Shown: positions 10,384-47,520, counted from the stretch's first letter. The stretch is 64,000 nucleotides of DNA from an uncultured delta proteobacterium (GCA_963823335.1 CAWGLD010000009.1:1-64000); one strand, 5' to 3'. A program made the numbers and translations. Notes: generated by a model from the sequence alone, not told the origin.

Positions 10384-10720
10384 GATACACCTGTAGTCCT
10401 GTCAATTGAATTCAACTCCCATAATCAAATAATAACGCATGCCGATTTACAGATTTAATGTCCTTAGTATCATATTTTATATCATTTAGTTAGTTCAATT
10501 ATCAGATTAGAATGAACTTCAATGAAATCTAATGAATCAGAGAGATGTTTTCTGTGATTTGTTGACCTTTTCTTGACCTGACTGGTCAAAAGACGAAGAT
10601 TCCCCGACAGTATTGTATCCTAAGAGTTACTTGACCTGACACCCACAAAATATGGTATCTATACTTGTACATGACTGGCACTATTTCTCCATGTATCAAA
10701 GGAAGAAATCATACTGAATA

Positions 10721-11173
10721 ATGAAAGGAGGCCAACGAATGCAAGGCATAAATGTTGTTGGTAAGTGGAAACTCATATCCGCTAAGGCCGAAAACCCGGA
10801 TGGAGATATATGGTATCCATATGGTGAAGATGGGTTTGGGATTCTGATGTATGATGCCCATGGTTATATGTATGCCCTGCTTATGAGACGTGGCCGATCA
10901 AAATTTGTTTCAGGTGATCCACTGGGTGGCACCTCCGAAGAGCTGAAGGAGGCATTTGAGGGATTCGATGCTTATTGCGGAACATACGAATTGGATATAG
11001 AAAATGGGAAAGTTACTCACCATGTCGAAGGCGCTCGTTTTCCGAATTGGGAAGGGACTGATCAGCAACGCTTTTTTGAGCTTTCCGATGATCGACTGGA
11101 TATTAAGACTGAACCTATCCCTGCACTTGGAACAGAGTGGGTTGTGAGTCTGATATGGGATCGTGTGGTTTAA
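10721..11173 (+). CDS. lipocalin-like domain protein
   Basis: VGKWKLIS, G.LMY..G.M, AYCGTY, PNWEGTDQQR; start may be 10739. Confidence 0.85.
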   Translation: MKGGQRMQGINVVGKWKLISAKAENPDGDIWYPYGEDGFGILMYDAHGYMYALLMRRGRSKFVSGDPLGGTSEELKEAFEGFDAYCGTYELDIENGKVTHHVEGARFPNWEGTDQQRFFELSDDRLDIKTEPIPALGTEWVVSLIWDRVV

Positions 11174-11197
11174 ATTATTCCTATGCCTATTGGGTGA

Positions 11198-11365
11198 TTC
11201 CAACAAAAACAAAGTTATCAGACCCCTAAAATTTTACCTGTGTGCGAAAATAATCACAAAAGACTAAATCTTGCATTCATAGGTTCTTCCGTGATATTTT
11301 GGGGAGGATAAAATAGTATCGGTGATGTTTCATTAAATTTAAGTAACAAAAGTATTCTCCATATC
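11198..11365 (+). repeat. cassette-boundary element (family A), copy 1
   Basis: TCCAACAAAAACAAAGTTATCAGACCCCTAAAATTTTACCTGTGTGCGAAAATAATCACA...ATCTTGCATTCATAG...CTCCAT. Confidence 0.85.
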
Positions 11366-11386
11366 CATGCAGTTTCAAGGGATGTC

Positions 11387-11776
11387 ATGGACACATCATT
11401 ATTGAGAAAAATCGATCTTAAAAGCGGCCTGGAGTTGGAGATTTATGACATCTCAAGAAAACTGGCCGGCGACAGATGGTATGTCGGATTTATAGCGCGC
11501 GTTGAAATCCCCATAGCTTTTCTTGCAGGCCATGCCGATTCACCTCAGGTTGATATAGAAAAGATGAAAGATATGCTGGGTGAAACCGTTCGGTTTGAAC
11601 AGAAGCGCGACCGGCATTATATCGACGAAAAAGAAAAAATTACCCTGTTGAACGGTCTCATAGATGATTTCCTGGCGAGCACCCTGCCGTATTTTTCTGA
11701 AAAGGACTTTGCGAAGAAATATGTCCTTAAAGAATACCAAAAAAGGCTTGTAAAAGCCTCGTGGTATAAGACGTGA
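11387..11776 (+). CDS. hypothetical protein
   Basis: 129-aa ORF with RBS; no family recognised. Confidence 0.75.
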   Translation: MDTSLLRKIDLKSGLELEIYDISRKLAGDRWYVGFIARVEIPIAFLAGHADSPQVDIEKMKDMLGETVRFEQKRDRHYIDEKEKITLLNGLIDDFLASTLPYFSEKDFAKKYVLKEYQKRLVKASWYKT

Positions 11777-12049
11777 AATGTCCGGGTCAGATTCATGGGA
11801 CAGGAACCTGTTAACTTTGCTTGAAGATATCTGTACAACTGCTTAGATAGTGGTAGTCTCCATGTATCTGCTATTCTTTATCCAAAGCACAAACCATAGC
11901 ATATTGATTCCCATGGTAACTAAGTTTCTATTAGCAATAAATTACATCTCTCGCATATTTGTTATATAGTTTGAGTTCGTTGCCAATCTATCGAGACACC
12001 GCTACTAATTCTTTTCAAATTAAGAATACCACCCTGTATTGTTAATTGT

Positions 12050-13095
12050 TACAAAATTCATTAGAAACAGGCCTCAACTGGCAACGCATTTGTACCAGGT
12101 CGAGGTTCTTTTGATCCAATCAGCATCATTGGCTTTGCGGAGTTTCTAATGTGAATAAATAAACCATAATGAAACCGTAGTGTCAGCCTTGTGTCTTCGT
12201 AGTTTCATTTACGTGGTCTTCGCCGACAATTTGTTGTTCACCTGGCTGACCGATCATATTTATGTCGCGCTCACGGGCTTCACTTATGTATCGACCTCAA
12301 AATACGGTTTCACTTCGCCTCTAACGGCACCAGGTTAAAGCCAAGATACTTGGCTCTTGATTTTAGCGCTTTTATTCGTTTTTCTTTGCTCTTTGACATA
12401 AGATACGCTTCGCCAAGATCGACAAACGATTTTCCATATTTAATGATATGATAAACTGCTTTGGTGATTCGATGGGCTATGGCGACAATGGCTCTTTTGG
12501 CCCCCCGCCTGGATTTAAGACGATGATACTTGTCTTTATAGTAGGAGCCTTTTGTCCTCACAGCAGCCCAGGCAATTTCGATCATCAGTTCCTTAAAAGG
12601 GTGTTTGCGCACCGGACTTCTTCCACTTTTTCGTTTCCCGGCACTCTCATTGTTGCCGGGACAAAGCCCTCCCCATGAAGCTAAAGCTTTCTCTGATCTA
12701 AAGGCTGTTAATGTATCACCAATATGACCGATGATCGATTGGGCTGTTTTTTTATCAATGCCGGGAACCTGATCTAGTTGGTCGATCATCTCCTGATGGG
12801 GAAGCATAATATCATCCAGGCGTCTGGTAATAGCTTCAATTTCACTCTCAAGGTGATTGATAGTCTGCATCATCATTTTCAGCTGAAAACGATGAAACCA
12901 TGTCCTTGTGGACATCTAACCCGCAACAAATAGGGTGTACAACGGAAATAATTTTGCTACTGTTTTTCTGTGTCATAGCTATCCTCCTTCATTTGATAAA
13001 TTTTCATGCTCCATTTTTTAGAGGATAGCTATGGCATTTCAATATAAATTTATGTTTCATGCTTCGTTGTGCGCGTTTGGGCATGAAAATTTATT
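12050..13095 (-). mobile_element. internally deleted IS110-family element with structured non-coding flanks (ends approximate)
   Basis: transposase remnant plus multiple hairpins on both sides. Confidence 0.65.
12310..12976 (-). pseudogene. IS110-family transposase with large internal deletion and frameshift
   Basis: GAAGGAGG RBS, then MTQKNSSKIISVVHPICCGLDVHKD (DEDD N-terminus), joined out of frame near 12901 to a C-terminal part with VPGIDK...LASWGGLCPGNNESAGK...AIVAIAH. Confidence 0.9.
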
Positions 13096-14006: not shown

Positions 14007-14050
14007 TCGACTACCCTTGATCAAATATTTGAATAGCGAATTTGCCCGCT

Positions 14051-14095
14051 AACCCTGCTGCAGGCTATGGGGAATGTGTTCGCTGTTGCGGTTCA
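14051..14095 (+). repeat. dispersed REP-like repeat family B
   Basis: AACCCTGCTGCAGGCTATGGGGAATGTGTTCGCTGTTGCGGTTCA. Confidence 0.65.
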
Positions 14096-14140
14096 ACGTC
14101 GGCCGTCGTCTGTGTTCATTAATCTTAACAACCTTCTTTC

Positions 14141-15723: not shown

Positions 15724-15788
15724 ATGACCAAATGGTATCGGTGATTTTAACGGAGAGATTGATAACTGGACTTGTCTCCATCTATCGG
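15724..15788 (+). repeat. family A element, right (hairpin) half only
   Basis: ATGACCAAATGGTATCGG...TTGATAACTGGACTTGTCTCCATCTATCGG. Confidence 0.8.
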
Positions 15789-19111: not shown

Positions 19112-19154
19112 GCATTGTTAATTAATAATTTCATGTATCGTCTATCGCAGATAA

Positions 19155-19323
19155 CTCTTACAAAACGGTAGATATCAGGTCCCTAAAATATCACCGATGT
19201 TTAAAAATAATCACAACCAACCGAATCTTGTATTCGTAGTGGCTTCCATGGTACCGTGGGCATAACCAGATGATATCGTTAATATTGCCTGATTTTTCAA
19301 AATGTCAGGTGTCCATATATCTG
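19155..19323 (+). repeat. family A element, copy 2
   Basis: CAAAACGGTAGATATCAGGTCCCTAAAATATCACCGATGT...AATAATCACA...ATCTTGTATTC...CCATGGTACCGTGGGCATAACCAGATG. Confidence 0.85.
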
Positions 19324-19325
19324 TA

Positions 19326-19590
19326 TTGCGACACGAAGTCGCGTATTTTGACTGTTCAGCAAAAGGTGTTTAAACCTTTTGTCTGAACCCAGCGTCCCGT
19401 CGCTGCGATCCTATGGAAGCATGCGCTCAAGGTGCATTCTTGATGGGTATGAAGCCTTCCTGACAATGCGCCGAAGTTCGCCTGTGCGAACGGTGTGGAA
19501 GCCGTGAGGTGGAAACGCTCCTGGAAGCTCCGTCCGGGTGAGGGGTTAGGATAGGATACTATGGTCAACGCAAGTGAACACTCGTACCCG
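19326..19590 (+). mobile_element. probable 5' fragment (domain I) of a group II intron
   Basis: starts TTGCGACACGAAGTCGC (GUGCG-like 5' end); GGTGTGGAAGCCGTGAGG, GAAGCTCCGTC and GGTCAACGCAAGTGAAC resemble bacterial group IIB domain I as recalled; no RT ORF or domain V follows. Confidence 0.55.
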
Positions 19591-22695: not shown

Positions 22696-22795
22696 TCAGT
22701 GAACAGTAATCAGTAAAAAAAGTAATCAGTTATCGATAGTCATCAGTTACTGAACACTGATTACTGATCACTGAATACTGATAACTGATTACTCA
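22696..22795. repeat. degenerate heptamer (CAGTnnn) array with inverted counterpart; similar arrays fill most intergenic gaps of this operon
   Basis: TCAGTGAACAGTAATCAGTAA...ACTGATTACTGATCACTGAATACTGATAACTGA; also ~23793, 25676, 26592, 27200, 28250, 29340, 30030. Confidence 0.85.
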
Positions 22796-22810
22796 TAAGT
22801 TGGAAAAACA

Positions 22811-23788: not shown

Positions 23789-23972
23789 CCGTATTCAGTA
23801 AACAGTAATCAGTGACCAGTATCCAGTGGTCAGTAAACGGTGAGTTGAAAAGTTACAAAGTTAAAAAGTGGCAGGGTAGAAGCGGGAAAAGGTAGAAAAG
23901 CAAAACATAAAGGTTAAAGGGTTAAGAAATTTAAAAGTTACTGAGTCAAAAAGGTTGAAAAGGAGAAATAAA

Positions 23973-25667: not shown

Positions 25668-25800
25668 AGGGAAGAGGCAGTAGTCAGTATCCAGTGAACA
25701 GTAATCAGTGAGTGGAAAAGCTGAAGAGTAAAAGAGTTACAAAGTAGAAAGGTAAAAAAATGCACAACGGTTTGAGACAAAGGCAGAGAAAAGGAGCACC

Positions 25801-26100
25801 ATGAAGAAGATTGATGAAGAAAACAGATACTTTTTCGGCGGTAAGATCGAGATGGAAACCATAATGGGGTGGGGGTATTCCCGGTACATTGTCAGCCAAT
25901 TGGGACCAATGGGGGGCACCCTGATGGCGGTTGATCCAAATGCGCCAAAGGTGGACCGGTTTATCAGAATCGGTGGCGATCCCTACCTGATCCGTTACAA
26001 TAGCCGTCTGCCAGTTGTTGTATATGCGCCTGAGGGTGTTGAAGTGCGTTATCGGTTATGGCACGCCGAGCCGGAGGAAAAGGCGATGGAAAATGGCTGA
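25801..26100 (+). CDS. ecotin-family serine protease inhibitor, N-terminally truncated
   Basis: GWGYSRY, GTLMA, RYNSRLPVVVYAPEGVEVRYRLW; no signal peptide or N-terminal third. Confidence 0.78.
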   Translation: MKKIDEENRYFFGGKIEMETIMGWGYSRYIVSQLGPMGGTLMAVDPNAPKVDRFIRIGGDPYLIRYNSRLPVVVYAPEGVEVRYRLWHAEPEEKAMENG

Positions 26101-26587: not shown

Positions 26588-26725
26588 GAAGTATTCAGTG
26601 ATCAGTAAGCAGTGAACAGTAAAAGATTGAAAAGTATAAAAGTTGAAGAGTTAAAAAGTGCAGTAATCAGTATGAAAGATAGACCGATAATTTGTCATTT
26701 ATAATCAGGAATTGCGGAGATAATA

Positions 26726-27199: not shown

Positions 27200-27268
27200 C
27201 AGCTTGAAGTTAACAGTAATCAGTTATCGGTAATCAGTAGTTACTGAACACTGAATACCTGGAAAAAT

Positions 27269-35973: not shown

Positions 35974-36079
35974 TGGAATTAGGTGGCTATTGAAGGATGG
36001 GCGTTCAAAGAAAAGGCATAACCTTTCACTGATGCTGATGGCGTGTTGCCGCCGCACAGTTCCGACACCGTTGATATCT

Positions 36080-36159
36080 GGTACCTTTCCTGTAGATAGA
36101 TTTTGGGGAGGCGAGCGAGCCCGAAGGGTATAGCTCGCGGAGCCTCCGCAAAGCTATCT
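36080..36159. repeat. 80-bp palindromic (REP/MITE-like) insert
   Basis: AGATAG..TTTGGGGAGGC..GCGAGC-loop-GCTCGC..GCCTCCGCAAA..CTATCT; TATCT at both junctions. Confidence 0.6.
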
Positions 36160-36218
36160 CCAACAAAACGGTAGATATCAGACCCCTAAAATATTACCGA
36201 TGTGCGAAAATAATCACA
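36158..36218 (+). repeat. family A element, left half only, adjacent to the recombinase 3' end
   Basis: CTCCAACAAAACGGTAGATATCAGACCCCTAAAATATTACCGATGTGCGAAAATAATCACA, then diverges. Confidence 0.88.
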
Positions 36219-36223
36219 GTTTG

Positions 36224-36258
36224 AAGGGTGGTTCCGGGCAAAGGGAGCCACCCTTTTT
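36224..36258. terminator. hairpin downstream of the recombinase gene
   Basis: AAGGGTGGTTCC...GGAGCCACCCTTTTT. Confidence 0.55.
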
Positions 36259-36263
36259 CCCTT

Positions 36264-36749
36264 TTAGCTGTAGATGGTTTCAATCCATTTCAGCGCCTCG
36301 GTATCGCTGATCCTGCCCAAATATATCTGAGTGGTCGACAGGTTTGAATGCCGGAGAATGATCTTACTCACAATTTCAAGCGGCACTCCTGAACGGGAGG
36401 CAAATGTTGCAGCATGGCGTCGCAAATCATGAGGTCGCAGATGGATGCCAACCAACTTACCAGCTTTTGCCACAATCGAACGGGCAGTCTCATAACAGAT
36501 CGGAAATATACTTTCCTGTAATCCGATTTTCTGAGTTTCGACATATTCCCTAAGGCGATCAGCCACCTTTTGGGGAATAAATATCATTTCACACTCACGA
36601 CCGCTTTTCGGTTCCCTTAACAATATTTTCCTTTCAGAAATATCATTGGGTACGATTTTCAACACCTCACCTATTCGTATAGCACAACGAGCCATGAGTT
36701 CGAGCATCAAACGGTTCCTGGGATGAACTGTCCGAAAAACTATTGACAT
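36264..36749 (-). pseudogene. tyrosine recombinase, catalytic domain only (N-terminus missing)
   Basis: IRIGE (R), PKSG (K), HDLRR (HxxR), LRH, TTQIY (Y); no IntI-specific insertion; only 161 aa. Confidence 0.9.
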
Positions 36750-36872
36750 AACTGGTTGTTATGCTAGTCGGGATACTGACAAGATACACTAACTGTTATT
36801 CATTCTAAATAAAAGAAAACGGGAAGGCTTAAAAACCACCTCCCCGTTAAATACTAAAGGGCTAAAAAAGGG

Positions 36873-37136
36873 TTACTTGCTCTTCGCTGCCGGTTTCTTT
36901 GCCGCCGGTTTCTTCGCCGCCGGTTTCTTTGCTACCGGTTTCTTCGCCGCTGTTTTCTTTGCAGCCGGTTTCTTTGCAGCCGGTTTCTTTACTGCTGTTT
37001 TCTTCACTGCTGTTTTCTTCACTGCTGTTTTCTTTGCAGCCGGTTTCTTTGCTACCGGTTTCTTCGCTGCTGTTTTCTTTGCTGCCGGTTTCTTTGCTGC
37101 TGTTTTTTTTGCCGCCGGTTTTTTTGCTGCTGCCAT
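36873..37136 (-). CDS. histone H1-like Lys/Ala-rich DNA-binding protein
   Basis: almost entirely (A/V)KK(P/T)A pentapeptides; GGGAGGG RBS; varied codons. Confidence 0.82.
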
Positions 37137-37505
37137 GGAACCCTCCCTAAATGTTTAAATTGTTAGGATCATCACATAGCCCTTTAGCTTAGAAAATAAT
37201 ATTAGCATGAACAATGCATTTTGTATTAAAATTTAGATATGCTACTATATATAGTATGTCAAGCTTATTGATTGATGGATTTTTAAATTAATTAGCAAGA
37301 TAGATGCTGCTCCGCTTGGGAAAAATGAACATCACTATCAAACTGATGCTCCCCTTCTAATTAATATACCTAACAGCCTGAAGCTTTAAAAACTCATAAC
37401 TTGCTATGCACATTAACAACCTTGTGTTATCATAGAGTCCTAAAGAATATTGCTCTAACAGAATAATAATTAAAAAAATTGAAACTCAATAGAAAGGAGA
37501 AAGCT

Positions 37506-37775
37506 ATGAACAAAGGAGATTTAATCAACGAAGTTTCAAAAGTCCTAAAAACCAAAAAGGATGCTCAGGCAGCCGTGGACTGTGTTATTTCAAGCATTAC
37601 CAAGGCATTGGAGAATGGAGACTCTGTATCATTGATTGGATTCGGCACATTTAAAGTGGCTGATAGGAAGGCGCGTCAAGGCAGAAATCCCCAGACAGGG
37701 GAAGAAATATATATTGCAGCAAGTAAGGTGCCTAAGTTTGTTGCAGGAAAGGTATTGAAGGATGCTGTGAAATAG
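37506..37775 (+). CDS. hup: HU family DNA-binding protein
   Basis: [40 protein letters not shown]. Confidence 0.95.
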
Positions 37776-37831: not shown

Positions 37832-37849
37832 ATACTGTATTGCCGATGC

Positions 37850-38020
37850 CTCTAACAAAAACAAAGATATCATACCCCTGAAAAATCACCGGTGTGCAAA
37901 TATTATCGCAACCGGCGTAATCTTGTATTCATAGGGACTCCCGTGGTACGCTGGGCATAACCAGATTGTATCGGCAATAATTTGGTTGAGCTTGATAACT
38001 GGACATCTCTCCATGCATCA
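37850..38020 (+). repeat. family A element, copy 3
   Basis: full match including CACCGGTGTGCAAATATTATCGCA, TTGTAT-N18-TACGCT and CCAG...TTGATAACTGG...CTCCAT. Confidence 0.88.
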
Positions 38021-38250
38021 GTAATCAGCTGATATTTGGTTTTTAGAATTGATATCACATGCAACAATCTTGCAAATAACGAATCCCTTGACCCTTTCTC
38101 CCAAATCAGGTACTTATTTTATAGTCGCTTAAATCACACCTGACCTGATACTGATTTCCAAACTTGATCCTGAGCTGATCTCATTCTCGACCTGTCTGTA
38201 CATTTCCAAGACGTATCATCTTCTTCAACCCCCAACCAGAAGGTGATCTA

Positions 38251-41200
38251 ATGCCCACAGACCAAGATAAAACCATTCGCAAACTCAGAGCCATCCTTAG
38301 TGCAGATGTCAAAGGTTATTCCCTCCTAATGGCAAACGATGAAGCCTTCACGATAAAGACTCTCAAAGAGTATCGGAAGATCATGTCCGACTTGATCAAG
38401 CAGTATAGCGGTCGTGTTGTGGACTCTCCTGGCGATAATGTTCTGGCTGAATTTTCCAGTGTTGTTGATGCGGTGACATGTGCAACTGATGTACAGAAGG
38501 TTCTCAAGGTGAAGAATGAAGGGCTTCCTGATGATAAAAAGTTGGAATTTCGTATCGGAGTCAACATAGGTGATGTTGTTCAGGATGGAGATCGTATTTA
38601 TGGCAATGGCGTAAATGTCGCTGCCCGTATAGAAGGTCTTGCTGAACCTGGTGGAGTAAGTATTTCACGTAATGCCTATGACCACATCCGGGACAAGTTG
38701 GAGTTAGGCTATGAGTATCTTGGTGAACATAGTGTAAAAAACATTAAACATCCTGTCAGGGTGTACAAGATACTAATGGACCCAGAAGACGCCGGCAAAT
38801 TAATTGGTGATGTACCTAAACTCGTGGTCAAGAATTGGATCTGGGTGACCATTGTTTTGGCTGCGGTGGTTATTGCGGTAGTTGGTACGATGGTTTATCA
38901 GAACGTGACTGAGCCGGAATTTGAACCTGCAAAAATTGAAGAGATGGCATACGCACTACCAGATAAGCCCTCGATAGCTGTCTTGCCCTTTGACAATATG
39001 AGCGGCAACCCGGAACAGGAATATTTCGGTGACGGCATTACCGAAGATATCATCACCGCTCTTTCCAAAATCGATGACCTCTTTGTAATTGCACGCAACT
39101 CGACGTTTACCTATAAGGGCAAGCCGGTCAAGATTAAGCAGGTGGCAGAGGAACTGGGCGTACGCTATGTGCTCGAAGGAAGTGTCCGAAGATCGGAAGA
39201 TCGGATAAGAATTAACGCTCAGTTGATCGATGCGGTAGAGGGAAATCACCTATGGGCGGAACGCTACGATCGTAGTCTGAAAGACATCTTCACTTTGCAG
39301 GATGAGATCACTATGAAGATCGTTACCGGATTACGAATAGAGCTTACTGAGGGTGAACAGGCTCGCATGTTTGGTGCGCGGAGCACAAATCTTGATGTAC
39401 AGTTAAAAGTTATGGAGGGCCTTTCGCTTTGGCGAAAAGGCACCAAAGAAGGTCTAATAAGGTATGGCCAGATCGGAAAGGAAATCGTCGATATGGCGCC
39501 CGAAGCTCCGTTTGGTTACATCGCCTTGACTGTGTATAACTGGACCCTTGCAATGCTTGGTGAATCACCCGAGGAGTCCATTTCAAAGGCCTTCAAAAAT
39601 GCGAAAAAGGCTCTCTCCCTGGATGAATCTTTCGCCTTGCCTCATGCCATATTAGGCAATGTCTACATTTTGATGCGAAAGTATGAAGAGGCAATTGCCG
39701 CGGGGGAACGAGCTGTAGAACTTGAACCAAATGGCGCTGATGTGCATGTGCTTTTGGGCAGCACGCTCGGTTACGCCGGAAGGCTGGACGAAGCCATTGA
39801 GCATCTTAACCAAGGGATCCGTCTCAACCCTTTTCCCCCTTCGTGGTACTTCATTCAATTAGGCCGTTGCTTTAGGCAGAAAGGAATGTACGAGGAAGCG
39901 CTGACAGCATATGAGAAAGCTGTTCAACGTAGTCCAGAAGATATCCATAACCATATATCATTAGCTGCTGTTTATGCTATATTAGACCGAAACGACGAGG
40001 CTGAGGCGGCGGCTAAAAAGGTCTTAGAGATAAATCCCAATTTTTATATTAAAATAGCTACAAAAGCCTGGCCATATAAAAATCCAGCCGATTTGAAACT
40101 TTTTATCGATGCCTTGCGTAAAGCTGGCCTTCCTTACGAACCATCAATCCCACTATCCGATAAACCCTCCATCGCAGTCCTGCCGTTTGACAATCTCAGC
40201 GATGACCCAGAGCAGGAGTATTTCAGTGATGGGATCTCTGTGGAAATTATCAACGGTCTCGTTAGGTGGCCTTCGATAGTAATCATACCTAAAAGTTCAA
40301 GTTTCATTTATAAGGGCAAAACCGTGGACGTGCAGGAAGTGGGACGAGAGATGGGTGTGAGGTACGTCCTGGAAGGAAGCGTCCGTCGTGAGGGGAACAG
40401 GGTTCGTGTCACCGTCCAACTCGTCGACGTTACCACCCTAAAGCACCTCTTCTCCGAACGTTACGATCGTGAAATGAAGGATATCTTTGCTATCCAAGAT
40501 GAAATCACTATGGGTGTCTTAACTGCCATGCGAGTATCGCTTTCCGGCACAGGAGTTCCATCACATCGGGGCATGCCTACAAAAAGCATTGAGGCCTACC
40601 TGAAATTATTACAGGCAGAGGATATATTTCTATCCATGAATCGAGATGCCCAAGCCCGGGCAAGGCAATTGGCTGAAGACGCCATTGCCCTGGATTCTGA
40701 ATATTCACGGGCACACGCCTTGATGGCGGCCACTATTGGAAATGAGGTTCTACTTGGCGTTTATAACAACTCTCAAGAAGCCTTACAACGGGCCATAGAA
40801 CTTGCCGATAAGGCAATCCAGTTAGATGATTCCGAAAACATGGCGCATAGAGTTCGTGGGTTCTTGGCTTTGCAAAACAAGGACTACGATAAAGCCATTG
40901 CCGGAGCCAGGCGAGCTGTCGAACTGGCACCTAATTCCGCCATTGCCCAGGTTATCCTTGGTTATTTTCTTTACAGCGCCGGTAGAACAGAGGAAGCCAT
41001 TCCGATTCTTGAAAATGCCATGGCGCTCAACCCAATTCCTTCTCCTCGCGCACTTAGTCACTTGGGAATAGCCTATCGAAAGGCACGGCGATATGAAGAA
41101 GCGGTTGAGGTTTGCAAAAAACTGATTCAAATCCAGCCGAATTACATTTACCCTCACCTTACACTTGCCGCCACGTTTGTGGAGATTGATAAAATGGATG

Positions 41201-41343
41201 AAGCCCATACGGAGATCAAAGAAGTCTTGAGAATCAACCCAAATTATTCTGTTAAACTTATCCCAAGGTCTTTCCCTTGGAAGGAGCAGAATGAGTTGGA
41301 TCGATTGGCCGATTCCTTGAGCAAGGCAGGTCTCCCCGACTGA
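38251..41343 (+). CDS. class III nucleotidyl cyclase + TM + two TolB-N/TPR modules
   Basis: paralogue of 16016 with a nearly identical 5' leader and start. Confidence 0.93.
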   Translation: MPTDQDKTIRKLRAILSADVKGYSLLMANDEAFTIKTLKEYRKIMSDLIKQYSGRVVDSPGDNVLAEFSSVVDAVTCATDVQKVLKVKNEGLPDDKKLEFRIGVNIGDVVQDGDRIYGNGVNVAARIEGLAEPGGVSISRNAYDHIRDKLELGYEYLGEHSVKNIKHPVRVYKILMDPEDAGKLIGDVPKLVVKNWIWVTIVLAAVVIAVVGTMVYQNVTEPEFEPAKIEEMAYALPDKPSIAVLPFDNMSGNPEQEYFGDGITEDIITALSKIDDLFVIARNSTFTYKGKPVKIKQVAEELGVRYVLEGSVRRSEDRIRINAQLIDAVEGNHLWAERYDRSLKDIFTLQDEITMKIVTGLRIELTEGEQARMFGARSTNLDVQLKVMEGLSLWRKGTKEGLIRYGQIGKEIVDMAPEAPFGYIALTVYNWTLAMLGESPEESISKAFKNAKKALSLDESFALPHAILGNVYILMRKYEEAIAAGERAVELEPNGADVHVLLGSTLGYAGRLDEAIEHLNQGIRLNPFPPSWYFIQLGRCFRQKGMYEEALTAYEKAVQRSPEDIHNHISLAAVYAILDRNDEAEAAAKKVLEINPNFYIKIATKAWPYKNPADLKLFIDALRKAGLPYEPSIPLSDKPSIAVLPFDNLSDDPEQEYFSDGISVEIINGLVRWPSIVIIPKSSSFIYKGKTVDVQEVGREMGVRYVLEGSVRREGNRVRVTVQLVDVTTLKHLFSERYDREMKDIFAIQDEITMGVLTAMRVSLSGTGVPSHRGMPTKSIEAYLKLLQAEDIFLSMNRDAQARARQLAEDAIALDSEYSRAHALMAATIGNEVLLGVYNNSQEALQRAIELADKAIQLDDSENMAHRVRGFLALQNKDYDKAIAGARRAVELAPNSAIAQVILGYFLYSAGRTEEAIPILENAMALNPIPSPRALSHLGIAYRKARRYEEAVEVCKKLIQIQPNYIYPHLTLAATFVEIDKMDEAHTEIKEVLRINPNYSVKLIPRSFPWKEQNELDRLADSLSKAGLPD

Positions 41344-41371
41344 CCTTTCCACCATGCTTGAACGGTGATAC

Positions 41372-41545
41372 CTCCTACGATTCGGTAGATATCAGGTGCC
41401 TTAAAAACCACCGATGTGCGAAAATAATCGCAATGGGCTAAATCTTGCAGAATTAGGAGTTCACGTGGTACCGTGGGGATGACCAGATGGCATCAGTAAT
41501 ATTGTCTGTAATTCCAGCAACAAAGCTGATCTCCATCAATCACAG
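41372..41545 (+). repeat. family A element, copy 4
   Basis: CGGTAGATATCAG...CACCGATGTGCGAAAATAATCGCA...CGTGGTACCGTGGGGATGACCAGATGG...CTCCAT. Confidence 0.85.
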
Positions 41546-41685
41546 GTCTGGATTTCAGCTATTTCAGTTTAAAATATCCCATTTCTTGACCCATCCTGCA
41601 AAATCATGTATCAATTTTATAAATCCCTTTATTCACTTCATTTTCATATAGAATCATCTTCAAACCCTAAACCGAAGGTGATCTT

Positions 41686-43458
41686 ATGCCCAACGAACAA
41701 AAAGTCACCAGAAAACTTAGAGCCATTCTCAGTGCCGATGTAAAGGGATACTCCCTCCTAATGGCAGACGATGAGGTTCATACCATCCAGACGCTGAAGG
41801 CGTACCGCAGCCTGATGTCTGATCTTATCCAACAGCATTCCGGTCGTGTTGTAGATAATCCCGGTGACAATCTTCTGGCAGAGTTCTCCAGTGCCGTAGA
41901 TGCTGTAGATTGTGCTGTGCAGGTCCAGAACAGGCTGAAGAAAGAGAATGCAAAGTTTGTCGAGGGCAAGAAACTTCAGTTCCGTATAGGCGTAAACATC
42001 GGTGATGTTGTTCAGGATGGTAATCGGATCTATGGAAGTGGTGTAAATGTTGCTGCTCGAATTGAAGGGTTGGCTGATCCGGGTGGTATATGCATATCAC
42101 GGAACACCTATGATCATGTGAAGGGCAAACTTAATATTGGCTTTGAGTACCTTGGTGAGCATGAGGTTAAAAATATTGGGGAACCTGTACGAGTATATAG
42201 GGTACTGTTGGATACAGATTCACATAAGCCACTGGTAGAAGAACTGCTTGAACTACCGGATAAACCCTCAATTGCCGTTCTTCCATTCGATAATATGAGT
42301 GATGATCCAGAGCAGGAATATTTCTCTGATGGAATAACAGAAGATATCATAACAGCTTTGTCACGCTCTTCATGGATGTTCGTGATAGCACGAAACTCCA
42401 GCTTCGCCTACAGAGGAAAGGCGGTTGATGTAAAAAAAATCAGCAAAGAGCTTGGGGTTCATTATGTTTTGGAAGGAAGCGTAAGAAAGGCAGGAAAAAA
42501 AATACGTGTAACAGCACAACTGATTGATGGGATTAGTGGAAAACATGTATGGGCTGAGAAATATGATGGCGATCTTCAGGATATTTTCAACCTACAGGAT
42601 CAGATAACACAAAAAGTTGTGGCTTCTACCTATACACAAGTTGCCTTGAGTATTGGGGAGGTTGAAACGAAGGTTAGAAGGGAAAATATCCGCACTTGGG
42701 AATTAATCGCTAAAGCTTGGAAATATGGATATGATTTTACAGAAGATAGTCTTGATTATGCAGAGAAACTATTGAGATCAGCGTTAGATTTAGACTCAAA
42801 TAGTGGAATGGCCAATTGTCTCTTAGGAAGTATGTTAATTCATAAGGTTATGATGGGCTATGTCCCTGGGAAAGTTCGTCAGATCATAGATGAATCTTAC
42901 CAATTTGCACATAAAGCAATATCAATTGATGAACAACTTGAGTTCGCTCATTGGGTTATCGCCATTATTCATTTGATGTCAGGAAAACATGATCTTGCAC
43001 TCGCTGAGTTTCAGCGTACAATAGAGATAAACCCTAATTTTTCATTAGGTTACGGAGCCCTTGGCTCTGCTCTCGCCTTTTGTGGAGAAACAGAAGAAGC
43101 GATTAATAATAACGAAATTGCAATAAGAATAAATCCCAGAGATTCGAGCATCTTTTATCGCTATTCTGATATAGCTTTATCCCATTTTTTAGCAGGAAGA
43201 TACACAGACGCAATTGAATGGTCAAAAAAAAGCATACAGAGAAAATCGTATTGGCAGATGGGCCACGCAATTCTTATATCCTCCCTCGGTCATCTTGATC
43301 GTCCAGAAGAGGCTAAAAGGGCGATAGAAGACTTTCGAGAATCGTTTTTCGGGAAAAGAATTTCAACTTTTAAAAACTTACCGTTTAAGTATTCCGAAGA
43401 TTCGATTAAGTTTCAAGAGGGGCTTCGAAAAGCAGGATTATTTGAACAGATACCATGA
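41686..43458 (+). CDS. class III nucleotidyl cyclase + single TolB-N/TPR module (no TM)
   Basis: same cyclase motifs; KPSIAVLPFDN; TPRs. Confidence 0.93.
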   Translation: MPNEQKVTRKLRAILSADVKGYSLLMADDEVHTIQTLKAYRSLMSDLIQQHSGRVVDNPGDNLLAEFSSAVDAVDCAVQVQNRLKKENAKFVEGKKLQFRIGVNIGDVVQDGNRIYGSGVNVAARIEGLADPGGICISRNTYDHVKGKLNIGFEYLGEHEVKNIGEPVRVYRVLLDTDSHKPLVEELLELPDKPSIAVLPFDNMSDDPEQEYFSDGITEDIITALSRSSWMFVIARNSSFAYRGKAVDVKKISKELGVHYVLEGSVRKAGKKIRVTAQLIDGISGKHVWAEKYDGDLQDIFNLQDQITQKVVASTYTQVALSIGEVETKVRRENIRTWELIAKAWKYGYDFTEDSLDYAEKLLRSALDLDSNSGMANCLLGSMLIHKVMMGYVPGKVRQIIDESYQFAHKAISIDEQLEFAHWVIAIIHLMSGKHDLALAEFQRTIEINPNFSLGYGALGSALAFCGETEEAINNNEIAIRINPRDSSIFYRYSDIALSHFLAGRYTDAIEWSKKSIQRKSYWQMGHAILISSLGHLDRPEEAKRAIEDFRESFFGKRISTFKNLPFKYSEDSIKFQEGLRKAGLFEQIP

Positions 43459-43509
43459 TAAGAATGCAAAATACACCACGTTTCTTTAGGCCTCTTATTG
43501 ATGGCATAA

Positions 43510-43682
43510 CTCCAACAAAAACAAGGTTATCAGACCCCTAAAATTTCACCGGTGTGCGATTATAATCACAACAGGCTGAATCTTGCATTGATAAGAATTT
43601 CCGTGGTGCTTTGGTGATGCCCAGATGGTATCGCTGATATTTACATCAAACTTGATAACTGGACTTATCTCCATTAATCACA
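43510..43682 (+). repeat. family A element, copy 5
   Basis: full-length match to the other copies. Confidence 0.88.
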
Positions 43683-43757
43683 AGCTGGAAATTCGAGGTT
43701 TATTAGCGTCTCCATTTTTGCATTATTTTCAATAACTTCAAGGTATGGAGGTTCGTT

Positions 43758-45203
43758 GTGCAACGCAGAAACCTATTCTATCTAATATCCGCTGTAGTCC
43801 TTTTGATAATATGGACCCAAACGATTGTGTGTGCTTTGGCTCTTGAAAAAAAACCAACGGCATTCATTCATGCAAACCTGATACCCATGACAACCGAAAA
43901 AGTACTACCAGACCAGACTGTGATCGTTGAAGGTAAGCAGATTGCAGTCATAGGTCCTTCCAGCCAAACGGAGATACCTTCCAATGCTATTGTGATCAAT
44001 TGCCAAAACGCGTTCATTATGCCTGGTTTATCTGACATGCATATGCATCTCCGATACGATTGGAGTAGGAATGTTTGGCCGGTGTCCCCCTTGAAGCTTT
44101 ATCTTGCCAATGGCGTCACGACAATTCGTTGCTTGGGACCAAGAGGAAAAACTGGCCGGTACGGTCTTACATGGCGGAGGGAGATCGATGCTGAGCATCT
44201 TGTTGGTCCAAATATATTGACATGTGGCCCTCAACTTCGCGGTCATTTCAAAAAGAATCCAGAACAAATTGTTATTGAGCAAAAATACCAAAGATTCGAT
44301 TTCATTAAAATCTATTCCTTCGTAACAAAGGAAGAATATCATACTATCATGTCAACAGCCAAAAGGCTTGATTTTTATACCGTTGGCCACATCCCATTTC
44401 AGGTGGGTCTGGAAGGTATTTTGGCAGAAGGCATGAATGAAATCGCTCATGTCGAAGAGCTTTTGTATGAATTTTATAATCTCGATCGCAGGCGCTACTT
44501 TGAAAAAGAAGGGGAGTGGATGGCTTATGCCAACCATAGCGGTTTCTATCAATTTGAGAACTATTTCAATCTCGATCCAAAGGATAGAGATCAAAAATTA
44601 GATGATATGGTTGCACCGGTGGTTAACAAGCTGAAAGATAAGGATATTCCAGTCTGCACCACACTGGTATTGGATGATATTCTTGTACAAAAGCTATTCG
44701 AACCGGATCTTTTTTTGAAGAAACCAGAAATTCGATTTTTGCCCGAGTGGTACAGGAAGCAATTTCTATCCGGAAAGGAGAAGCACCAACAACAGTTCAA
44801 GGGTGGTGAAGTGTTTGCTCAATTTAAATACGGGTTGGATAAAAAGCTTTTAACAAGTTTAAAAAAAGCAGGTGTCCAGTTACTGTTGTCTACAGACTCC
44901 GGGTCAGGAGCAATGGGTGTCGTACCGGGGTTTTCCATTCATGATGAACTCAGCATTCTGGTTGACAACGGCTTTACACCTTATGAGGCGCTTGCCGCTG
45001 GAACCGTCGTGGCTTCTAAAATTGTGAAAAGAATGAATGGACGAGATGATTTTGGAACCATCGTGCCTGGAAAAAGAGCAGATCTTATTTTATTGCATCA
45101 AAATCCACTGGAGGATGTTGCCAATGCCCGCAAGATAATTGGCGTCATGGCTGCCGGTCGATGGTATGATCAAAAGGCCATCGCTGAGATGTTGGATCAT
45201 TGA
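43758..45203 (+). CDS. amidohydrolase family protein (exported)
   Basis: MPGLSDMHMH, GVTTIR, STDSG, GKRADLILL..NPLED. Confidence 0.92.
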   Translation: MQRRNLFYLISAVVLLIIWTQTIVCALALEKKPTAFIHANLIPMTTEKVLPDQTVIVEGKQIAVIGPSSQTEIPSNAIVINCQNAFIMPGLSDMHMHLRYDWSRNVWPVSPLKLYLANGVTTIRCLGPRGKTGRYGLTWRREIDAEHLVGPNILTCGPQLRGHFKKNPEQIVIEQKYQRFDFIKIYSFVTKEEYHTIMSTAKRLDFYTVGHIPFQVGLEGILAEGMNEIAHVEELLYEFYNLDRRRYFEKEGEWMAYANHSGFYQFENYFNLDPKDRDQKLDDMVAPVVNKLKDKDIPVCTTLVLDDILVQKLFEPDLFLKKPEIRFLPEWYRKQFLSGKEKHQQQFKGGEVFAQFKYGLDKKLLTSLKKAGVQLLLSTDSGSGAMGVVPGFSIHDELSILVDNGFTPYEALAAGTVVASKIVKRMNGRDDFGTIVPGKRADLILLHQNPLEDVANARKIIGVMAAGRWYDQKAIAEMLDH

Positions 45204-45350
45204 ATCCATTAATCAATCAATTCACAGATATTATCACACATCAAATGGCTTTGAGATACTGAAAAACAGTTGTGCCATATATAAGGGTTCTTACGAGCAC
45301 AATAAGCTGAAGATTTCTTGCATAAACCTATTGCCCTGCACCGTTGATTT

Positions 45351-45520
45351 CTCCAACAAAACGGTAGATATCAGACCCCTGAAATTTTACCGGTGTGCGA
45401 AAATAATCACAACAGGCCAAATCTTGCATTCATAGCATCTGCCATGGTACCGTTGGGATGACCAAATGGTATCTGACAAATTCCCAAATTGTCGGATAGT
45501 TGGACTTGTCTCCATGTATC
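45351..45520 (+). repeat. family A element, copy 6
   Basis: full-length; preceded by CACCGTTGAT; hairpin TATCTGACAA/TTGTCGGATA. Confidence 0.9.
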
Positions 45521-45645
45521 GGTAATGTAGATTGTTGGCTATTTCTGTAAGATAGTGTTGAAAATTTTTTTCAGTTGAATTATAGGCTTATCGTTCCCTT
45601 CTGTCTCATTTCCGTTACCCCAAAACTAACAGTTAAGGAGAAAAC

Positions 45646-46320
45646 ATGAATCTGAATCTCGCAAAGCATTTCCTTGGTATTATCATGTTTCTTACTATTG
45701 TATCTGCATGTATTCTCTCTACCTCTTTTGCATATGCCCAAGGCGCTCCCTCATTCAGTATTGGTGCGTTTGGCGGATTTACTTCAGACATGTCCTCAGA
45801 GGCTGTGGAAGATTATGATGATACTGAGTGGGAGGCCGGTACAGCCTATGGCGGCAGTGTTATGTACCGTATGGCAAACGGTTTTGTTTTGGAGCTTATT
45901 GTTAAACAGTTCGAAATGGATGCAGAGGAGAATGGCGATGAAATTGGAACCTTGAAAGTGACACCCATACTCTTGATGATCGGCTACCAAAGCATGCCGA
46001 AAAATCAAAGCGGATTTGCTTTTCACGCCTCGATTGGGGGTGGGTATGCATCGTCAGATTTTGATAAAGGTGACGATATCAAAGACCTGGAAAGAGCTAA
46101 TGGCGTTAAAATCGACATCGACAATGACGATGCCTTCATGTTCGAGATGGGCGCCGGAGTCGATTACTTTTTCACAAGAAACATAGCACTGACGTTGGAC
46201 GGTCGGCTTGTAGCCGGGGATATCGATTCGGAATGGGATTTTAGTAATGGAGATTCGGAAGATTTTACGTTTCAGACGGGTCATTTCGAAGGCTTGGTGG
46301 GGCTTAGGCTCTGGTTTTAA
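45646..46320 (+). CDS. outer-membrane beta-barrel protein (OmpW/OmpA-TM-like)
   Basis: signal peptide, amphipathic strands, GAGVDYFF, C-terminal Phe. Confidence 0.85.
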   Translation: MNLNLAKHFLGIIMFLTIVSACILSTSFAYAQGAPSFSIGAFGGFTSDMSSEAVEDYDDTEWEAGTAYGGSVMYRMANGFVLELIVKQFEMDAEENGDEIGTLKVTPILLMIGYQSMPKNQSGFAFHASIGGGYASSDFDKGDDIKDLERANGVKIDIDNDDAFMFEMGAGVDYFFTRNIALTLDGRLVAGDIDSEWDFSNGDSEDFTFQTGHFEGLVGLRLWF

Positions 46321-46802
46321 TGATAAGACCATAACCTAATAGCCCTATTTGTAACGAAGGTTACATTCATTCATCGATCCATCAATGAATCATTATTCCT
46401 ATTTGTATAAGTTGCATAGATTAAAGTGGCAGAGCTACCTTAGCTCTGCCACTTCTTTATATATCACATATGGTTCTGAAGGTTGTAAAGTTGCACTAAC
46501 TCCTACACATCGGTATTTAACGATATTTACAGGTTTTACAGCAAATCACCACCATAGCCATTTTTAGACAACCTGTATTTTTATGTTATCATCAGGGAGA
46601 ATCGTTTCGGCGGTTTTCCCTTTTTTGCAAATTTGTAAGAAAAATGGTATCTGTAACGACATATTGGGCATTTCGATGTCAGATATGCTCAGAAAACACA
46701 GGTTTTTTGGGCGGGGTGATAACCTGAACATCTCTCCATCTATCTTTACCCCACAGGGGCACAAATATCTGAAAAACATGATCCCGTAACTTGGAAAAGA
46801 AC

Positions 46803-47264
46803 ATGCAGCTTAAGCCAATAGGAAATATTCAGACGCCTTATAAAGCAAAGGAAGATTGTCCGATTCAACCAATTTACGCTTCTAATGCTGAAGGTAAAAT
46901 AGAGATCTTCGAGCAATATGCTCCTGGCCTTAAGGATATAGAGGCTTTTTCACATCTCCACATCATATATTTATTCCATCGAGCAGGAGAGGTTCAACTG
47001 ATACGCCCTACATTTTTAGATGATGAACCTCATGGAATATATGCATCAAGGCACCCATGCCGACCAAATTCTATAGGCATGTCGATTGTTCAACTTAAAA
47101 AGAGAGTTGGGAACACACTAATTGTCAAAGGTGTTGACGTTCTTGATGGCACGCCACTTTTGGACATAAAACCATACATCCCAAAATTTGACATTATAGA
47201 ATCTGCCTCCAACGGTTGGGTTGATGGCACTCAATGGCGCCCTAAACCAAGAAATCGCGAGTAG
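46803..47264 (+). CDS. tsaA: TrmO/TsaA-family tRNA methyltransferase-like protein
   Basis: LKPIG.IQTPY, GIYASRHPCRPNSIG, DGTPLLDIKPY. Confidence 0.9.
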   Translation: MQLKPIGNIQTPYKAKEDCPIQPIYASNAEGKIEIFEQYAPGLKDIEAFSHLHIIYLFHRAGEVQLIRPTFLDDEPHGIYASRHPCRPNSIGMSIVQLKKRVGNTLIVKGVDVLDGTPLLDIKPYIPKFDIIESASNGWVDGTQWRPKPRNRE

Positions 47265-47266
47265 GA

Positions 47267-47418
47267 ACCCCCTAAAATTTTACCGGTGTGCGAAAATAAT
47301 CACAATCGACCGATTCTTGCATTAACGGTGGTCCCCATGGTACCGTGGGCATGACCAGATGGTATCGGCAATAATTTTGTTGAGTTTGATAACTGGACAT
47401 TGTCTCCATGTATCACAG
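47267..47418 (+). repeat. family A element, copy 7 (5'-trimmed)
   Basis: CCCCTAAAATTTTACCGGTGTGCGAAAATAATCACA...TTGCAT-N18-TACCGT...TTGATAACTGGACATTGTCTCCATGTATC. Confidence 0.88.
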
Positions 47419-47520
47419 ATCGACCAATCCGACCGCCTGCCTGTAAATCTCAATGTATCAGACCTTTGGGGATAAATAGAGAGAGATTATCGTCCATGAT
47501 TAATCATCCGAGCCAAACGC

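Follow-up and report, generated by a model that had tools for sequence, protein, structure and literature searches.

The element described here, which we call E, would form the joints in a chromosomal gene-cassette system in Desulfobacterales, shuffled by a Xer-type recombinase whose gene sits in a few copies of E; we put the probability of this reading at about 0.5. The window, a stretch of 64,000 nt from an uncultured delta proteobacterium (GCA_963823335.1 CAWGLD010000009.1:1-64000; genome G000, a sediment sulfate reducer), had first been noticed for a repeated co-oriented element, and this observation is confirmed: the element is real and larger in extent than first noted. The genome-wide profile scan proposed in the original prediction, with a profile built from seven window copies and run over the whole 4.37-Mb genome, returned 88 copies of E, 57 of them near full length, clustered and co-oriented beyond chance. 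Another copy was found within 10 kb of 83 of the 88 (uniform expectation 33%), and 61 of 63 neighbouring pairs in the genome had the same orientation.

E is about 172 nt long. A repeat search in the window recovered seven copies of 171 nt each, all on the + strand, starting at 11198, 19155, 37850, 41372, 43510, 45351, and 47244. The seven near-complete copies and two halves originally listed thus stand, with the correction that the copy placed at 47267 is the one at 47244; the repeat search put the left half at 36157-36218 and the right half at 15724-15786. Their placement just after + strand stop codons also holds for the full window copies, which start 18-140 nt past the stop of a + ORF, and fails for the copy at 47239, which overlaps the stop (Table 1). 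E is non-coding, with codon-position entropies of 0.68/0.65/0.76 and a 42-codon minus-strand frame that is open in only ~25 of the 57 near-full copies. Half copies break at recurrent places: nine left halves stop at profile positions 71-82, and six right halves begin at positions 117-119.

Table 1. Features of the window, in nucleotides from its first letter.
Feature	Position	Strand	Remarks
Third-family element, right end	10625..10697	+	core 10686-10697
E copy, full	11191..11374	+	repeat search and profile
Sister-family element, right end	11800..11868	+	core 11857-11868
E right arm alone	15724..15788	+	profile positions 118-182; heads first cyclase-TPR cassette
E copy, full	19146..19330	+	group II intron fragment next
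Hairpin module H	36065..36150	+	upstream of E or E2 at several loci
E left arm alone	36153..36218	+	profile positions 6-71; abuts recombinase remnant
Terminator-like hairpin	36223..36256		between recombinase stop and E left arm
Truncated Xer-type tyrosine recombinase	36264..36749	-	161 aa of ~278; 96% identical to C1 copy
E copy, full	37842..38028	+	repeat search and profile
Cyclase-TPR cassette gene	38251..41343	+	1030 aa
E copy, full	41363..41550	+	repeat search and profile
Cyclase-TPR cassette gene	41686..43458	+	590 aa
E copy, full	43504..43688	+	repeat search and profile
Amidohydrolase cassette gene	43758..45203	+	
E copy, full	45343..45528	+	left-end core 45351-45357, right-end core 45509-45520
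OMP cassette	45509..46496	+	right-end core to E2 left edge; 98-99% identical to G005:C2
E2, complete second-family element	46497..46745	+	same end motifs; right-end core 46733-46744
TsaA/TrmO-like cassette	46741..47269	+	~93% identical to G004:C19, other neighbours there
E copy without first ~25-38 nt	47239..47422	+	TsaA-like gene end replaces ~25 nt

The ends of E are sharp. Both contain a TCTCCA core as a direct repeat, in the form CTCCAAC at the left end and TCTCCATnTATC at the right, and each end also holds short inverted GATA-type repeats; the earlier statement that the ends lack visible terminal repeats was therefore wrong. Nearly all of the 57 near-full copies share these two end sequences, which are direct, not inverted. 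Where ~2 would be expected, the genome has 55 right-end cores: 38 are ends of E and the other 17 are ends of sister families or solo sites. Cassette 3' ends show a further regularity, a GAT two bases ahead of the left core (18 of 47 copies, ~0.7 expected). Among the remnants listed originally, those at ~10674, ~11846, and ~46718 are genuine, each carrying the 12-nt right-end core of a sister-family right end, while that at ~35162 has no similarity elsewhere in the genome, lacks the core motif, and was not confirmed. One candidate element-free junction was seen, on contig C1 at ~146,650-146,671.

The segments between elements look like cassettes. Exactly one ORF of at least 90 aa was found in 39 of 61 segments, and 89 of 106 ORFs run in the direction of E; together with the orientation of neighbouring copies, these counts bear out the original view of a co-oriented cassette array. 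As in integrons, most of its units have one gene. Cassette content is diverse and has no common function, 16 of 47 genes belonging to no Pfam family.

We examined eight blocks that are common to other species or duplicated within the genome, hence 16 block ends. Fifteen of these lie on landmarks of E: eight on the right-end core, four on the left edge of the element that follows, two on the left-arm/centre junction, and one on a truncated E; the last lies elsewhere. As an example, a 1.27-kb duplicate on contig C7, comprising a gene and its downstream E, is 99-100% identical to a second copy at a distance of 13 kb within the array, and both of its ends fall within the 12-nt right-end core. Between species, cassettes of G000 are 98-100% identical to those of G005, G007, and G004, compared with only 82-88% for the gene flanking the C7 array and 68-92% for a syntenic operon, and the neighbours of inter-element genes change from one species to another. 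The original reading of the modules as cassettes is partly supported: they have moved between species and have also been copied inside the genome, the breaks lying at element ends. The companion claim that the element is a recombination site needs amending: breaks do occur at the element, yet both of its ends are junctions, rather than one internal site. The spread of block ends over four landmarks, and not at one crossover point, counts against a recombinase-driven cassette model, and homologous recombination could also break at the left-arm/centre junction, which comes after a 25-nt nearly invariant block. All genomes except the Desulfosarcina records are metagenome bins, in which assembly error at repeats is possible. 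No excision circles were seen in four public runs; contig joints in these runs, considered as excision products, were rejected as mosaic matches between different copies of E.

The enzyme linked to E is a tyrosine recombinase of the Xer type. The 278-aa protein combines a SAM-like core-binding domain (PF02899/PF13495/PF14659) with a catalytic domain (PF00589) and has no arm-binding domain. Its best family match is the XerA-type model NF040815 (126 bits, cut-off 220); XerD/XerC-type models also score under their cut-offs (TIGR02225, 68 vs 330; TIGR02224, 65 vs 335), and the best solved relatives are XerA and XerD chains (4a8e, 1a0p, 5hxy). The family has one to three copies per genome, often broken and in accessory regions. 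As a family the recombinase is intact. The reading frame of the first ~18 codons differs from that of the rest at 47 of 55 family loci, and a run of eight or nine A residues sits at the frame switch in 42 of these 47; most members need a shift at the A run. G000 has just two copies. The link originally drawn between element and recombinase holds for the family in a physical sense. The gene in the window is a truncated remnant; the full copy lies on contig C1, running opposite to E and flanked by its left and right arms in a ~1.1-kb unit, of which the 172-nt form and a form with a 110-nt centre look like internal-deletion derivatives. The same placement between arms was found in G000 (twice), G001, G015, and G053, and G002 retains 11 nt of the left arm. 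In each case the gene replaces profile positions ~73-117 of E, where half copies also end. It points away from an array beginning at its right arm in the window, on C1 of G000, in G001, and in Desulfosarcina variabilis, whose complete genome has a related recombinase unit with arms of its own heading a small co-oriented array. No E arms were detected at 71 loci of more distant family members (E-value ≤0.01). Contrary to what had been supposed, E also occurs far from the recombinase, since most G000 arrays have no recombinase of this family.

The centre and right arm of E have the conservation pattern expected of an outward promoter followed by a leader. In the E alignment, T86 T87 G88, T107 G108, T110 A111, and T115 are at least 90% conserved or invariant around a variable spacer, and two other centre types show TTGACA-N18-TAnnnT at the same place. 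In the copy at 45343..45528 the rightward -35 would lie at 45424-45429, the TG at 45445-45446, and the -10 at 45448-45453, and a leftward promoter-like site is found on the - strand at 45412-45384. The rightward candidate matches the sigma-70 consensus at three of six positions per hexamer and was not called in a promoter scan; the region has 35 promoter-like sites against 26.3 (sd 4.3), an enrichment that is not clear. The right arm contains a hairpin in which 66.8% of cells are paired (29-43% with the partner slid) and whose G-U pairs are compatible with the + strand only. Conserved end-to-end pairing of E was absent on either strand. A search of the window against Rfam 15 at gathering scores left E without a match, as did one at E≤1 over 43400-47500, a segment holding three E copies and E2.

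From these sequences we infer that the recombinase cuts at the ends of E. It would act in trans on E cores, so that gene segments, with or without E, are excised as circles and reinserted at other cores, a cycle that would build arrays, shuffle them, and carry cassettes from one species to another. Expression of the recombinase may be throttled through the slip required at the A run. The E centre would give a rightward promoter (TTG...TGnTAnnnT) and the right arm a hairpin-bearing leader for the downstream gene; with promoter and leader supplied by E, each cassette would bring its own expression signal. From the leftward promoter-like site of the left arm, transcription would reach the recombinase gene only if the unit were circularised. 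More tentatively, at somewhat less than even odds, this may be a second, independent integron-type gene-capture platform, widespread in Desulfobacterales and other Thermodesulfobacteriota, in which a slippage-gated Xer-type recombinase inside its own ~172-nt element assembles promoter-equipped cassettes and exchanges them between species. The two heterologous end sites of E would then permit the swapping of elements as well as genes.

The competing explanation that survives best, which we regard as unlikely, is that E is a non-autonomous deletion derivative of the ~1.1-kb unit that inserts site-specifically at TCTCCA-type targets, the genes being no cassettes and the arrays being insertions piled up between genes. 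Three centre types do form a deletion series (the recombinase gene; 110 nt with the terminator of the gene plus a promoter; 45 nt). The arms of the C1 unit and of the copies with a 110-nt centre align with those of E, as in MITE/IS pairs, where gene-less copies are internal deletions that keep the ends of the gene-bearing copy. The 6-nt direct repeat that the two ends of each copy share, the candidate element-free junction on C1, and the OMP and DnaJ comparisons, in which gene segments are 98-100% identical and adjoining elements differ, also speak for it. However, E copies are old and diverged (74% mean column identity), with no burst of near-identical copies, and the sole identical pair travelled together with a gene. 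Independent insertions do not predict the co-orientation of copies and ORFs. The change of neighbours that inter-element genes show across species also speaks against this explanation.

A quite unlikely alternative would make the recombinase unit a parasite that targets the E centre as its own attachment site, the joints being made by another enzyme, either host Xer or a tyrosine recombinase adjacent to an array. The constant break points around the gene, shared with the half copies, fit this idea, as do the many E-rich genomes without a close recombinase copy. For instance, G005 (94% complete, at least 16 E copies) has no recombinase homologue at E≤1e-20, and in G004 and G007 (at least 33 E copies) the best homologues are 57-63% identical and have no flanking E arms; these genomes also count against the main reading. 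Candidate enzymes exist too: other tyrosine recombinase genes lie beside arrays on C1 (1515953-1516633), C7 (~240.6-241.1 kb), and C4 (~151.8-152.1 kb), and separate full-length Xer-like genes on C3 (~153.9-154.8 kb) and C5 (~425.6-426.3 kb). Yet none of these is consistently linked to E, and in the four cases above the gene points away from the array at its right arm, as the array's own enzyme would.

It is improbable that E is just a portable regulatory module of an accessory-gene regulon, shuffled by ordinary homologous recombination between copies. The promoter-type conservation, the + strand hairpin, the persistence of E in recombinase-free genomes, and the two block ends just past the longest invariant block agree with such a module. 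Against it, 12 of the 16 block ends lie at extreme element ends, where partner homology stops; the C7 duplicate, with a core on both sides and 13 kb off, does not resemble unequal crossing-over; unrelated cassette ends have short motifs in common beside the cores; and the genes have no function in common. A classical integron or CALIN (attC cluster without integrase) with unusually long attC is extremely improbable: array layout and cassette content do resemble sedentary chromosomal integrons, but the best TIGR02249 score in the genome is 88.5 bits (cut-off 265), an intact member of the linked family reaches 52.5 bits on this model and 26 on NF011946 (cut-off 435), the ends of E are direct, and no palindromic fold is conserved across it, in agreement with the original reading of a non-IntI recombinase and a site that is neither attC nor an Rfam family.

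If the cassette reading is true, gene-cassette platforms arose more than once, here from a Xer-type enzyme paired with an unrelated site, and the traffic of accessory genes among species of sulfate reducers that abound in marine sediments would have an explanation. As a means of controlling a tyrosine recombinase, the conserved frame switch at the A run would be unusual. The system would also offer genetic tools a new recombinase/site pair, possibly with two heterospecific sites, and it can be tested at the bench, since cultured Desulfosarcina strains whose genomes are complete have relatives of the recombinase unit.

Integrons, defined by IntI and attC, are to our knowledge the only well-understood bacterial device for stockpiling and reshuffling single genes so far. 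Like sedentary chromosomal integrons, E arrays are long and one-way, hold mostly single unrelated accessory genes, and have a conserved element of ~0.1-0.2 kb as the spacer; a tyrosine recombinase stands at the head of some arrays, facing away, while a promoter is directed into the array; genes move in one block with their element, and recombinase-free arrays occur, comparable to CALINs. They differ in having a Xer-type recombinase far below IntI models, and in E itself: attC is an imperfect palindrome with inverted core sites (RYYYAAC ... GTTRRRY), whereas E has direct TCTCCA cores and both of its ends are junctions, each E apparently has its own promoter, and the recombinase gene is enclosed by a copy of E. 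Acinetobacter pdif modules and other Xer-dependent mobile elements are likewise reported to shuffle accessory genes as modules between short Xer-family sites. However, dif modules use host XerC/XerD at sites of alternating orientation, an arrangement that E arrays do not show: here the sites are at the ends of a 172-nt chromosomal element, in one direction (61/63), and a small dedicated recombinase is carried in E. With IS/MITE and REPIN-RAYT families E shares many short gene-less copies, one or two enzyme-bearing copies, and the same arms in both, and a slip at an A run is an expression device known from insertion sequences; but its enzyme is a tyrosine recombinase and not a DDE or HUH enzyme, it has neither terminal inverted repeats nor a variable target duplication, and its copies are old, co-oriented, and clustered, marking exchangeable genes. 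The protein itself resembles archaeal XerA and bacterial XerC/XerD in its SAM-like core-binding and catalytic domains and its length of ~278 aa, and differs from them in falling below every curated cut-off, in being embedded in a repeat element, and in its A-run frame switch.

A repeat search recovered the seven near-complete + strand copies of E, the ~172-nt element under study, that the original prediction had listed (171 nt; 11198, 19155, 37850, 41372, 43510, 45351 and 47244), together with two half copies, both +: a left part alone at 36157 and a right part alone at 15724. The supposed remnants fared unevenly: those at ~10674, ~11846 and ~46718 are real, being right ends of sister families with the terminal 12-nt motif, while the one at ~35162 has no right-end motif and was not confirmed. 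Turned into a profile, the seven copies matched 88 sites (E ≤ 0.01) in the host genome (4,367,180 bp, 11 contigs, with the window on contig 9), 57 of them near full length. Another copy lies within 10 kb of 83 of the 88 (33% expected under uniform placement), and 61 of 63 neighbour pairs, counted at 250-6000 nt apart, are co-oriented, so that the copies are not scattered in both orientations. The largest array, at 199.8-235.8 kb on contig 7, has 20 copies, + throughout. Exactly one ORF of at least 90 aa occupies 39 of 61 inter-element segments, and 89 of 106 such ORFs share the direction of E. Among 47 elements surveyed, the first gene after E varies widely in function (for example GNAT, cytochrome c', Ni-SOD, MscL, LysE, GGDEF, PAS-LuxR, MttB, a beta-lactamase fold and several DUFs), and 16 of the 47 have no Pfam family. 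A reading of 36.15-46.5 kb as DNA inserted into another repeat was rejected: the supposed halves are separate modules, the hairpin module H and a complete element of the second family, E2, which ends in the same right-end core as E.

Several other repeats and transposons were noted. A 1.8-kb DDE transposon (DDE_Tnp_1_6) is present on contig 7 (231150-232953) and contig 4 (535465-537268), 97% identical; on contig 7 its insertion point lies 7 nt short of the end of an E copy, which is cut at profile position 173. At ~146650-146671 on contig 1 the right-end core directly follows cassette-3'-type sequence, without E, and this may be an element-free junction within an array. The window itself holds an IS110-family transposase fragment (12056-13094; ORF 12310-12915, -), found again on contigs 1 and 4 at 99.3-99.9% identity; arrays of 7-nt words (families D8, D11, D12 and D17) filling the gaps between MoxR/DUF58/VWA/BatD-like operon genes (22716-30077); a 57-nt repeat (14040-14097) that recurs at least nine times, at 82-88% identity, on contigs 1, 4 and 6; and two two-copy direct repeats (7914-8017 and 57577-57680, 98% identical; 62899-62978 and 63874-63953, 88% identical).

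Aligned over ~172 nt, 57 copies of E have a mean column identity of 74%, with conservation in solid nucleotide blocks. A minus-strand frame of 42 codons, considered as a small protein gene, is open in only ~25 of the 57, with no third-position excess and no periodicity in codon-position entropies (0.68/0.65/0.76); block conservation, the broken frame and the lack of periodicity together indicate that E is non-coding. As predicted, no Rfam family falls on E, whether the whole window is scanned at gathering scores or 43400-47500 at E ≤ 1. The window's sole Rfam match is at 19388-19545 (+), where a group II intron fragment, a full-length match to group-II-D1D4-7 (81 bits), lies 58 nt past an E copy, with no reverse-transcriptase ORF, no domain V match after it and a sulfatase as the next ORF. 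A 437-nt composite of E and this fragment occurs three times in the related genome G007 (L053 = G007:C20 1-344, 3733-4169 and 8626-9062; 80-84% identity).

E consists of a left arm, a centre and a right arm, and half copies show two fixed break points: the nine left halves stop at profile positions 71-82, the six right halves begin at 117-119. Its centre comes in three types: the usual 45 nt; ~110 nt that include a TTGACA-N18-TAnnnT site and a terminator-like hairpin, seen in two contig-1 copies; and a complete tyrosine recombinase gene on the opposite strand, with its terminator and a divergent promoter-like site of the same kind. TCTCCA stands at both extreme ends as a direct repeat (CTCCAAC left, TCTCCATnTATC right), and short inverted GATA-type repeats surround each core. 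The 12-nt right-end motif is found 55 times in the genome against ~2 expected, 38 times at E ends and otherwise mostly at sister-family ends. GAT precedes the left core by two bases in 18 of 47 copies (~0.7 expected), in unrelated DNA left of E, and the DNA right of E falls into few recurring start types; the gene segments thus themselves carry part of the sites.

Three array stretches of 14-20 kb were searched against five genomes of the same genus, and six between-genome blocks (≥500 nt, ≥90% identity) were aligned along with two within-genome duplicates (see table). The block set leaves out two matches in the recombinase region, a flanking gene (L002 19117-20000 against G007:C13) that runs off the query, and two short 96% matches (L001 6572-6850 and 10857-11075). 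Fifteen of the 16 block ends fall on element landmarks: eight on the right-end core, four on the next element's left end, two on the arm/centre junction and one on a truncated E. In each between-genome comparison the block has other neighbours. The upstream E copies in the OMP comparison are only 74-84% alike. The flanking gene of the contig-7 array shares 82-88% identity with the same five genomes, and a syntenic operon 68-92% with G004. The cassettes at 98-100% are hence of more recent date than the splits between these species, a sign of horizontal cassette exchange. The gene left of this array is kept in G005 with other DNA beyond it, and the array's two flanks are on different contigs in G007; neither comparison yielded an empty site.

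Elements, exchanged blocks and recombinase genes (G000 unless a second genome is named)
Feature	Location or comparison	Strand	Identity	Left side	Right side	Remark
E2	window 46497-46745					complete second-family element
OMP cassette	vs G005		98-99%	right-end core of E	left edge of E2	
DnaJ-domain cassette	vs G007		98-100%	right-end core	within next E's left-end site	module H there in G007
Ni-SOD cassette	vs G004		98-99%	right-end core	next E's left-arm/centre junction	
TsaA-like cassette	vs G004		~93%	right edge of E2's core	truncated-E junction	
287-aa gene	vs G001		~90%	after core-type ends, both genomes	left edge of E	
183-aa gene	vs G004		98%	inside a gene	left-end core of E	
Lcl_C gene + downstream E	within contig 7, 13 kb apart		99-100%	12-nt right-end core	12-nt right-end core	
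~1-kb block	contigs 10 and 5		98.7%	right-end core	left-arm/centre junction	
Window recombinase	window 36264-36749	-		 		161-aa remnant; adjoins left arm + terminator; upstream part replaced
Contig-1 recombinase	contig 1			right arm 163771-163843	left arm 164784-164850	
Other tyrosine recombinase	contig 1, 1515953-1516633	+				
Other tyrosine recombinase	contig 7, ~240566-241057	-				
Other tyrosine recombinase	contig 4, ~151821-152108	-				

The best-supported reading of these comparisons is that E arrays form a cassette system with joints at the two E ends, and that gene units, with or without an E, move within and between genomes. Two observations count against a simple version of this story. 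Block ends fall at four different landmarks, and the proposed check for circle junctions, made in the contigs of four public DNA runs, saw no circles; no piece spanning the stretch was found there either, and among public runs none of RNA is listed as a holder of this sequence. Joints in these contigs, considered as excision products, link one E copy to the matching position of another, with other sequence in between, and are further mosaic E copies from the community. E might alternatively be a MITE-like insertion that lands between genes, as the three centre types, a deletion series, could suggest; the near-uniform co-orientation and the matching blocks that end on E landmarks speak for the cassette system.

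By a sequence-only covariance model, 23 of the 61 genomes examined from the order have E, counting G000, among them 7 of 9 other members of the genus and 12 of 14 other family members, with up to at least 41 copies per genome; E was absent from the plasmid and phage collections searched. The recombinase family (E ≤ 1e-20) is present in 21 of the 61, and 13 genomes have both, 10 only E and 8 only the recombinase, these genomes being related to each other. Among named records, Desulfosarcina variabilis, D. widdelii and D. alkanivorans, each with a complete genome, also have family members; there the recombinase forms a recurrent ~1.1-kb unit with its own conserved arms, and gene-less arm copies lie close by, co-oriented. 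E is absent from these Desulfosarcina recombinase loci; in D. variabilis, around 5.183-5.192 Mb of the chromosome, the gene faces away from two multi-gene segments split by repeats.

Only two copies of the recombinase were found in G000 by tblastn. The one in the window is a remnant beside an E left arm; the one on contig 1 lies between two arms and faces away from three further E copies. The arm-gene-arm layout recurs in G001, G015 and G053 (G015 belongs to another family, and its recombinase is 84% identical), and G002 keeps an 11-nt left-arm remnant. No E arms were found at the homologue loci L032-L040 beyond G001, G015 and G053, nor around homologues in 71 named-record loci. The recombinase might be a parasite of E rather than its enzyme: most arrays are without one, and G004, G005 and G007 are E-rich but have no close copy of it, both of which also count against the simple cassette story. 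The orientation of the gene in G000, G001 and D. variabilis, away from an adjoining array, is what one would expect of an enzyme belonging to the array.

Intact relatives have ~278 aa, with SAM-like and catalytic domains; the top curated family is of XerA type (126 bits, cut-off 220), and among solved chains XerA and XerD are nearest. The first ~18 codons are in another frame than the rest in 47 of the 55 loci whose gene is near-complete (L028-L040 and L068-L130), and a run of A8-A9 coincides with the switch in 42 of these 47; three one-frame loci (L032, L068 and L069) are without the A run. Because the frame break is kept across proteins only 50-98% identical, it looks like programmed slippage rather than decay. 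A runs in insertion sequences act through transcriptional slippage. Unrelated tyrosine recombinase genes or fragments stand at the edge of or within three more E arrays of G000 (see table). Between the recombinase remnant and an HU gene (37479-37775, +) lies a Lys/Ala-rich ORF of 87 aa (36873-37136, -) that matches the histone H1-like HC2 (PF07382) and is made of 15-nt tandem repeats (36851-37165); in G007 each of the two recombinase homologue copies (L060) has an HU-family gene convergent with it. The HC2-like and HU proteins may be architectural partners.

The 45-nt centre conserves the positions of a sigma-70-type extended -10 promoter (TTG 86-88, TG 107-108 and TA...T 110-115, numbered on the alignment's first row), all at least 90% conserved or invariant, around an 18-nt spacer that varies. 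The -35 of the other two centre types is better and lies equally far from the right arm. The rightward site of the 45-nt centre is weak by consensus (3/6 in each hexamer), and a promoter scan did not list it; the scan listed a leftward left-arm site, TTGTGA-17-TAAAAT, in two window copies. Sigma-54 and CRP-type readings of the conserved blocks, made by eye, were dropped because the spacing is unsuitable. A global RNA or ssDNA fold of E was likewise rejected, since neither RNAalifold nor an all-pairs scan produced a convincing conserved structure for either strand. The only fold with support, which is moderate, is a right-arm hairpin, in which 66.8% of cells pair against 29-43% with the partner slid by 1-3 columns. 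Its base stem is paired in 44-56 of 56 copies, and its many G-U pairs are compatible with the + strand only. The right arm would then be the leader of a transcript begun in E and continuing into the next gene.

Such signals would also suit a purely regulatory E, shuffled by homologous recombination; the 12 of 16 block ends that stand at the outermost ends of elements fit this less well. For the cassette system, conservation and position suggest that E would bring a promoter and a leader to the next gene, and that a slippage-gated Xer-type recombinase carried inside E would be the likely enzyme. A true integron, which the arrays resemble, is the weakest alternative: the recombinase is non-IntI, as predicted (52.5 bits with the integron-integrase model against 265), and no gene in the whole genome reaches the IntI cut-off.

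Literature searches turned up no account of E or of an Xer-type cassette system in Desulfobacterales, and the 'IntDes' group of PMC8138268 is Desulfovibrio-only and distinct from the E recombinase. Among known systems, the E system works like a sedentary chromosomal integron but fails both defining tests, IntI and attC. It has its enzyme class in common with Xer/dif modules, from which it differs in site layout and in the use of the host enzyme. IS/MITE and REPIN/RAYT pairs likewise consist of one enzyme-bearing copy and many gene-less copies.
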